A stretch of DNA of 64,000 bases from Escherichia coli. GTDB lineage: Bacteria; Pseudomonadota; Gammaproteobacteria; Enterobacterales; Enterobacteriaceae. The DNA is taken from assembly GCF_003334305.1 (NCBI RefSeq), contig NZ_QOWS01000008.1; one strand, given 5' to 3'. Positions 39,707-42,543 of this stretch are shown one piece after another; position 1 is the first letter of the stretch, and each line of letters begins with the position of its first letter. Below the pieces are notes generated by a model. That model did not search any database. It was given only the letters and a program-made list of their open reading frames with translations, and was not told where the DNA came from. The translations under genes and the position numbers were made by a program.

Positions 39707-39942
39707 TGGCTTCACTTATTCAGGTGCGCGATTTGCTGGCGTTACGGGGCCGTATGGAAGCGGCCCAGATAAGCCAGACATTGAACACTCCACAGCCAAT
39801 GATTAACGCCATGCTGCAACAACTGGAAAGTATGGGCAAAGCCGTGCGGATTCAGGAAGAACCTGACGGCTGCCTCTCTGGCAGTTGTAAAAGCTGCCCG
39901 GAAGGAAAAGCCTGTCTGCGCGAGTGGTGGGCGCTGCGTTAA
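39706..39942 (+). CDS. feoC: FeoC (winged-helix, Cys-rich)
   Basis: 78 aa from MASLIQVRD; start overlaps the feoB stop (TAATG). Confidence 0.85.
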
Positions 39943-39968
39943 CCTTACTCCATCGCCTGTTTTGGAAA

Positions 39969-39999
39969 GCCCGGTATGCGTCTGCATCCGGGCTTTTTT
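39969..39999 (+). terminator. intrinsic terminator after feoC
   Basis: gcccggtatgc-gtct-gcatccgggc hairpin followed by tttttt. Confidence 0.6.
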
Positions 40000-40144
40000 G
40001 CGTGCGGCTTTCCATAAAAATGCAACTCTTGCAGCACGGCGTAAGTTCCTTTGAAAGCATCTCGCAGGGATGAAAACTCGCTAATGCACAGATGTGGAGT
40101 GGCGCGTAGAGTCGCGGCATTCAAACAACAGGTGAAGGAACGCC

Positions 40145-41023
40145 ATGAGTAAAAAGCAGAGTTCCACCCCACATGATGCGCTGTTCAAACTCTTTTTACG
40201 CCAACCGGACACGGCTCGCGATTTTCTTGCGTTCCATTTACCGGCCCCCATTCACGCGCTCTGTGATATGAAAACCCTCAAGCTGGAGTCGAGCAGCTTT
40301 ATTGATGACGATCTGCGTGAAAGCTATTCCGATGTGCTGTGGTCGGTGAAAACGGAACAAGGACCAGGATACATCTATTGTCTGATTGAACATCAAAGCA
40401 CCTCAAACAAACTGATCGCATTTCGCATGATGCGTTAAGCTATTGCCGCAATGCAAAATCACCTTGATGCTGGATACAAAACGTTGCCGATGGTGGTGCT
40501 ATTGTTGTTTTACCACGGTATTGAAAGCCCCTATCCCTATTCGCTGTGTTGGCTGGATTGTTTCGCCGATCCCAAACTGGCAAGGCAGCTTTATGCCTCC
40601 GCATTTCCGCTGATTGATGTCACCGTCATGCCTGATGATGAAATCATGCAGCACCGACGTATGGCGCTGCTGGAGTTAATTCAAAAACATATTCGTCAAC
40701 GCGACCTGATGGGGCTGGTAGAGCAAATGGCCTGCTTATTAAGTAGTGGATACGCTAATGACAGACAAATCAAAGGGCTGTTTAATTACATACTGCAAAC
40801 CGGCGACGCGGTACGTTTTAACGATTTTATCGACGGCGTTGCCGAACGTTCACCGAAACACAAGGAGAGTTTAATGACAATTGCGGAAAGATTGCGGCAG
40901 GAGGGGGAACAATCCAAAGCCCTGCATATAGCCAAAATAATGCTTGAATCCGGAGTCCCTCTTACAGACATCATGCGCTTTACCGGGGTGTCAGAAGAAG
41001 AGTTGGCTGCGGCGAGCCAGTAA
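40145..41023 (+). pseudogene. rpnA: rpnA (yhgA) recombination-promoting nuclease, interrupted by one in-frame TAA at 40436..40438
   Basis: 97 aa ORF + stop + 4 codons + 190 aa ORF, all in one frame, sum to the expected 292 codons. Confidence 0.65.
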
Positions 41024-41051
41024 ATTTCTGTCTCGCCATTTCAAAAGTTGC

Positions 41052-42543
<1,492 letters not shown>

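Follow-up and report, generated by a model that had tools for sequence, protein, structure and literature searches.

A natural nonsense allele of rpnA (yhgA) in Escherichia coli interrupts the nuclease reading frame upstream of an intact antitoxin cistron

Background

In a 64,000-nt stretch of Escherichia coli DNA (contig NZ_QOWS01000008.1 of assembly GCF_003334305.1, referred to here as the window), the rpnA (yhgA) gene is split by a single in-frame stop codon. The original prediction, made from the letters of the window, had left three readings of this stop side by side, namely a natural nonsense allele, a suppressible stop and a sequencing error. The locus thus raises the question of which of them holds, and of which rpnA products could still be made.

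RpnA belongs to the PD-(D/E)XK superfamily and cleaves DNA non-specifically, as an endonuclease that depends on Mg and is stimulated by Ca (Kingston 2017, PMC5350276). The substitutions D11A, D63A, E82A and Q84K all abolish its stimulation of recombination, its toxicity and its induction of the SOS response, and D165A, in the conserved PDDEI motif, renders it hyperactive (PMC5350276). Each rpn gene has been described as a gene-within-a-gene toxin-antitoxin system, in which RpnS, a small C-terminal protein with its own transcript and start codon inside the gene, binds and blocks the long nuclease RpnL (Zhong 2023, PMC10400941). [quoted passage not shown] RpnA-L in the absence of RpnA-S inhibits growth and cleaves DNA, immunoblots of K-12 detected RpnA-S with RpnA-L below detection, and, as reported there, RpnA-S is specific to its own cognate RpnA-L (PMC10400941).

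Results

Reading frame and lesion

The two ORFs share one frame and together amount to the length of one gene: 97 codons, the stop, four codons up to ATG 40451 (GCT ATT GCC GCA, read as AIAA) and a further 190 codons give 97 + 1 + 4 + 190 = 292 codons with the internal stop counted, the second ORF ending in TAA at 41021-41023 (Table 1). The positions and the arithmetic of this split, as first described, were exact. When compared with rpnA of K-12 MG1655 (b3411), the window gene was colinear over 879 of 879 nt, with 15 substitutions, no indel and an identity of 98.3% (864/879 nt). Ten of the changes are synonymous and four alter the amino acid sequence (Y98 to stop, P119L, A274T and L282V), the first being the only disruptive substitution. 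At codon 98, K-12 has TAC (Tyr) and the window TAA, owing to a C-to-A transversion at position 40438; the resulting allele is called TAA98 below.

Table 1 Features of the rpnA locus in the window
Feature	Coordinates	Strand	Remarks
Shine-Dalgarno sequence GAAGGA of rpnA-L	40134..40139	+	anti-SD duplex -5.7 kcal/mol within the 20 nt preceding ATG 40145
rpnA (yhgA) pseudogene	40145..41023	+	292 codons including one internal stop; from K-12 alignment, PGAP, NF007361 and PF04754
97-aa N-terminal ORF (residues 1-97)	40145..40438	+	keeps D11, D63, E82, Q84 and R94; first half of the nuclease domain only
Ochre TAA, codon 98	40436..40438	+	mutated base 40438; TAC in K-12 and in the intact sister allele
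190-aa downstream ORF (residues 103-292)	40451..41023	+	no Shine-Dalgarno sequence; without any PD-(D/E)XK catalytic residue
AAGGAG RBS of rpnA-S	40862..40867	+	codons K240-E241; anti-SD -8.5 kcal/mol
rpnA-S 49-aa ORF (M244-Q292) and stop	40874..41023	+	ATG 40874; open, intact

Orthology was assessed with the NCBIfam equivalog NF007361 (recombination-promoting nuclease RpnA), a 292-position profile with a curated cut-off of 583 bits. With Y98 restored, the protein scored 692 bits and aligned from 1 to 292 of 292, and the actual ORFs stayed under the cut-off (227 bits for the 97-aa and 436 bits for the 190-aa ORF). The Pfam match to PF04754 (Transposase_31) spans residues 8-209 of the Y98-restored protein; the stop at codon 98 halves this only domain, and an uninterrupted Transposase_31 domain of ~200 residues is not present. 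The signature residues D11, D63, E82 and Q84 (and R94) all lie in the 97-aa fragment. The gene order feoB-feoC-rpnA-bioH(-)-gntX is that of K-12, which places the gene in the orthologous position between feoC and bioH. The K-12 alignment, the profile score and this gene order together bear out the first naming of the gene as rpnA (yhgA), and the lesion is a specific hit in a clear-cut orthologue; the two ORFs do not lie side by side by chance.

K-12 RpnA (b3411, NP_417870) and the window gene have the same length, catalytic residues, internal RBS and internal translation initiation site at M244. Apart from P119L, A274T and L282V, the window gene differs from K-12 in its stop at Y98, with which no long nuclease/toxin is encoded and the antitoxin half alone is left. 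Descent and synteny make the locus an rpnA orthologue, yet it encodes no RpnA protein, and it has the features of a PGAP-type pseudogene, i.e., a single in-frame stop, a full-length alignment and recurrence in independent assemblies. As for the RpnL/RpnS organization, the TAA at codon 98 leaves no intact full-length RpnL ORF, and an in-frame internal RBS and start for the small RpnS are present; judged by its reading frames, the locus is not a complete RpnL/RpnS toxin-antitoxin system and has kept the RpnS half.

Spread of the stop among E. coli genomes

An exact 41-mer centred on the TAA was found in 290 of 5,426 complete E. coli genomes, or in 289 with a stricter E-value (~5%), always on the chromosome and always in single copy, and a 961-nt query (40100-41060) had matches of 100% identity on 40 or more complete RefSeq chromosomes of E. 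coli. The carriers include E. coli W (two assemblies) with its derivatives KO11FL and LY180, the commensal SE11, Shiga-toxin-producing strains of serotypes O91:H21, O178:H19 and O177:H21, and isolates from mouse, pig, cattle, echidna and orang-utan, among others. PGAP had flagged rpnA as "pseudo, internal stop" in nine of the nine carriers inspected, among them EC11, 2012C-4431, A28, ST2350, EC187792, SCEC020022, W and SE11. The pseudogenes of W (WFL_RS18770) and SE11 (ECSE_RS19110) have the codon-98 TAA, the 879-nt frame and the feoC-rpnA-bioH context just as in the window, and EC11, 2012C-4431 (O178:H19) and A28 are identical to it over 1118 nt. The exact 97-aa and 190-aa products each occurred on at least 1000 contigs of a collection of 15 billion proteins, and nine genomes matched the surrounding 24 kb at 100.0% (to one decimal), with strain A7 from an orang-utan as the top match.

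The comparison with other rpnA alleles that had been proposed as a check therefore returned an intact majority form and a TAA allele recurring across genomes. The suggestion of a natural nonsense allele is confirmed by the same TAA in all these complete genomes and on at least three haplotypes, and the two-ORF form is not the conserved arrangement, as the split is the minority allele (~5%). TAA98 already has its RefSeq annotation as an rpnA pseudogene allele, in W and SE11 as well as in hundreds of further strains; a literature search for yhgA as a pseudogene found no paper on it, which reflects its ordinariness and not its novelty.

The TAA allele was also present in NZ_CP026085.1, a 4.83-Mb RefSeq record labelled 'Escherichia coli strain DH5alpha'. 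K-12 is without this allele, and the record is probably no K-12 derivative and may be mislabelled.

Ancestry and haplotypes

The intact rpnA of strains S51, PSJ-22 and FCI54 (protein WP_000039057.1) differed from the window at one position in 1118 nt, namely 40438, and the exact 292-aa protein was present on at least 1000 contigs; since this common intact allele differs only at the mutated base, it represents the immediate ancestor. That a single base change would restore a sense codon, as had been foreseen, is borne out by K-12 and this sister allele, both of which read TAC. P119L, A274T and L282V are present in WP_000039057.1 too, and by this comparison they are ordinary polymorphisms of the intact allele and not decay that followed the stop. 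P119L (CCA to CTA, 40500), which predates the stop, falls inside the conserved VVPLLFYHG stretch of Transposase_31.

Eight carriers were compared and could be sorted into three haplotypes. The first is that of the window (EC11, 2012C-4431 and A28). The second (W and ST2350) has the K-12 variants at eight sites from 40086 to 40261, and the third (SE11, EC187792 and SCEC020022) has thirteen variants from 39945 to 40246 plus one synonymous SNP at 40984. Hence, W differs from the window by 8 substitutions and SE11 by 14, all of them upstream of 40262 save the synonymous SNP, and from 40262 to 41060 all carriers compared have a common 3' haplotype with the TAA, again with the exception of 40984. 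The SE11-type carriers have nine substitutions in the feoC-rpnA intergenic region.

Three 5' haplotypes joined to one 3' haplotype point to a single origin of the stop and homologous recombination with breakpoints 5' of it. A parsimony reading of the haplotypes (as opposed to a tree) thus indicates that TAA98 originated once and was then recombined, three recurrences of the same transversion being far less parsimonious. Downstream of the stop, the eight carriers had no non-synonymous and one synonymous difference, and no secondary disabling mutations were found in them; this absence of further decay would fit a fairly young pseudogene and continued constraint on the 3' part alike.

Predicted products of the interrupted gene

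The stop deletes two thirds of the PD-(D/E)XK nuclease/toxin RpnA-L. The 97-aa fragment is without residues 98-209, the PDDEI motif (D165) and the C-terminal oligomerisation domain, and it is presumably inactive.

Translation of the 190-aa ORF from ATG 40451, which had been raised as a possibility, was considered and set aside. Independent initiation there is unlikely because the predicted anti-SD pairing reaches only -0.6 kcal/mol, i.e., there is no Shine-Dalgarno sequence, and the value is weaker than that of ~71% of all ATGs in the window. Reinitiation 12 nt past a stop is possible in principle, at a low level. Any product from ATG 40451 would have no nuclease active site, and the product documented to be translated from within rpnA is the 49-aa RpnA-S from M244, not this ORF.

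The rpnA-S cistron stays intact 435 nt downstream of TAA98. Codons K240, E241 and M244 are those of K-12, and the AAGGAG at 40862-40867 is the only one between 40001 and 41100. The window RpnA-S was identical to the crystallised RpnA-S (chain A, 'RpnA', of PDB 7TH0) at 47 of 49 residues (E 2e-22), the differences being A274T and L282V. The internal promoter of rpnA-S is probably intact, as only three positions (40500, 40801 and 40810) differ from K-12 between the stop and the rpnA-S RBS (40439-40873). A consensus scan of 39900-41100 found 0 sigma-70-like sites, with 1.0 expected in shuffled sequences, a result that has no bearing on the rpnA-S promoter.

With regard to the surroundings, bioH is convergent to rpnA, and hence no downstream gene is open to polarity from the stop. 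Directly after feoC there is a GC-rich hairpin with a T-run behind it (gcccgg...ccgggctttttt, 39971-39999), which looks like a candidate feoABC terminator and would imply a separate promoter for rpnA-L in 40000-40130.

Other natural losses of rpnA-L

Among the 5,425 genomes matching the 961-nt query, 763 were covered over less than 80%, and two deletion alleles account for these. In the first (EcN/ATCC 25922-type), 254 bp are missing between the two copies of a 9-bp direct repeat, CATGATGCG, which occurs in the window rpnA at 40172-40180 and 40426-40434; the deletion shifts the frame after residue 12, and its junction was found in 194 complete genomes (EcN locus 1981-2029). The downstream copy of CATGATGCG ends 2 nt before the TAA of the window. 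In the second (ST131-type), ~437 bp are missing, roughly codons 27-171 (strain O25b:H4-ST131 4433, locus 640-1090), and the number of complete genomes affected was estimated at ~570, by subtraction and from the listing of its spread. PGAP treats both as pseudogenes ("missing N-terminus"). In both remnants the RBS and start (KHKESLM...) are preserved and the rpnA-S frame is open, with K-12-like sequence. These alleles were found in other strains and are deletions, not a point mutation as in TAA98, but all three do away with the N-terminal nuclease part and keep rpnA-S at the 3' end. Frameshifted rpnA genes were also seen in Shigella and other E. coli, with products of 89, 107, 242 and 261 aa. 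Counting TAA98 and the deletions, at least about 19% of complete genomes, a sample heavily biased to clinical clones, are without an intact rpnA-L; going by these alleles, rpnA-L is dispensable in nature.

A different arrangement was observed in O15:H18 ST69 (locus 1043-1467), where the C-terminal (RpnS) module of a 297-aa rpnA allele is a different one and the rpnA-bioH spacer measures 219 bp, as against 28 bp in the window. The spacer contains a small ORF, preceded by AAGGATGG, that runs into a stop-interrupted 3' remnant of K-12-type rpnA-S (92% identical). The form was seen in about 10 of 60 evenly spaced rows of the coverage listing, and it looks like the module replacement and the 'RpnSs' phenomenon of Zhong et al. 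(PMC10400941).

Discussion

We consider it highly probable (roughly 0.88) that the window carries an inherited loss-of-function allele of rpnA that goes back to one nonsense change, and no observation speaks against a nonsense allele. The C-to-A transversion (TAC to TAA at Tyr98) would have arisen once, on the common haplotype encoding WP_000039057.1, would have reached several 5' flanking haplotypes through descent and homologous recombination, and would by now be fixed in a group of strains, E. coli W and SE11 among them. To judge from the work on K-12, ribosomes that start at ATG 40145 would stop after 97 residues, and no active RpnA-L nuclease/toxin should be made, given that the fragment ends midway through the domain and has neither the PDDEI regulatory motif (D165) nor the oligomerisation domain. 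RpnA-S would probably still be produced, as its cistron lies intact 435 nt past the stop and could be served by the internal promoter known from K-12, the AAGGAG and ATG 40874. The 190-aa ORF would be translated at a low level at most, by termination-reinitiation 12 nt after the stop and without a Shine-Dalgarno sequence. The outcome would be an antitoxin-only remnant, and the loss of rpnA-L itself may well be neutral.

The main competitor to neutral loss, which we regard as improbable, is adaptive toxin loss: the stop and both deletions would have been favoured since RpnA-L is costly, and RpnA-S would be selected as an orphan antitoxin, so that the repeated discarding of RpnA-L in at least three lineage-wide events, with RpnA-S kept each time, would not be neutral decay. 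If true, the orphan could provide, e.g., immunity against incoming cognate Rpn toxins, or act as a regulator. Three independent lineage-wide lesions do wreck the N-terminal nuclease part and spare the rpnA-S ORF and its RBS, the eight TAA98 carriers had no further decay, the EcN-type and ST131-type remnants encode a K-12-like RpnA-S, and in K-12 RpnA-L is toxic once RpnA-S is absent (PMC10400941). However, codons 1-243 make up 83% of the gene, and the chance of three random hits all falling outside rpnA-S is ~0.57, which amounts to no signal; the sparing of rpnA-S by the three common lesions is thus suggestive, not significant. Moreover, C-terminal lesions occur too (the 261-aa and 242-aa frameshifted forms), and variation in the carrier lineage is too low for dN/dS. 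With RpnA-S specific for its cognate RpnA-L (PMC10400941), an obvious role would also be gone with the toxin.

It is very doubtful that the gene works as a functional split gene, in which the 97-aa protein and a 190-aa protein reinitiated at ATG 40451 would assemble into a two-piece nuclease. The spacing of 12 nt between the stop and this ATG is compatible with termination-reinitiation, both ORFs are unbroken in all carriers compared, and the catalytic residues all reside in the first piece. Against this, the second start has no Shine-Dalgarno sequence (-0.6 kcal/mol), the break lies inside a single Pfam domain (residues 8-209), and residues 98-102 would be absent from the assembled protein. 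In addition, the intact one-piece allele is both the majority form and the immediate ancestor, and other lineages delete the region outright.

Ochre suppression or programmed readthrough giving useful levels of RpnA-L, i.e., the suppressible stop of the original prediction, found no support and seems scarcely credible. A tyrosine-inserting ochre suppressor would, on paper, restore the exact wild-type protein. Yet a TAA followed by G, as found here, is an efficient terminator in E. coli, and natural isolates are not known to carry ochre suppressors. The stop is an ordinary ochre codon with no recoding motif or structure around it, the sister allele with TAC is intact, and PGAP calls the gene a pseudogene. 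No tRNA or tmRNA genes (ARAGORN) and no Rfam families at the gathering threshold were found in the whole 64-kb window. As intact RpnA-L is already below detection in K-12 (PMC10400941), a readthrough of 0.1% would be negligible.

A sequencing or assembly error at 40438, for which nothing speaks beyond the single-base nature of the change, is for practical purposes ruled out by the identical base in the 289-290 independent complete genomes, from many laboratories and platforms and on three haplotypes, and by the nine genomes matching the surrounding 24 kb at 100.0%.

Conclusions

TAA98 is a real pseudogene allele of rpnA and, as such, a correct but ordinary finding that carries little weight alone. 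Those who work with E. coli W, KO11FL, LY180 or SE11 should be aware that these strains are without RpnA-L. Together with the two deletion alleles, TAA98 provides natural 'toxin-minus, antitoxin-plus' variants in which the function of RpnA-S without its toxin could be studied, and the same variants could be used to ask if chromosomal RpnA aids phage defence or RecA-independent recombination. The only mildly interesting question that it poses is if the locus has come to work as an antitoxin alone.
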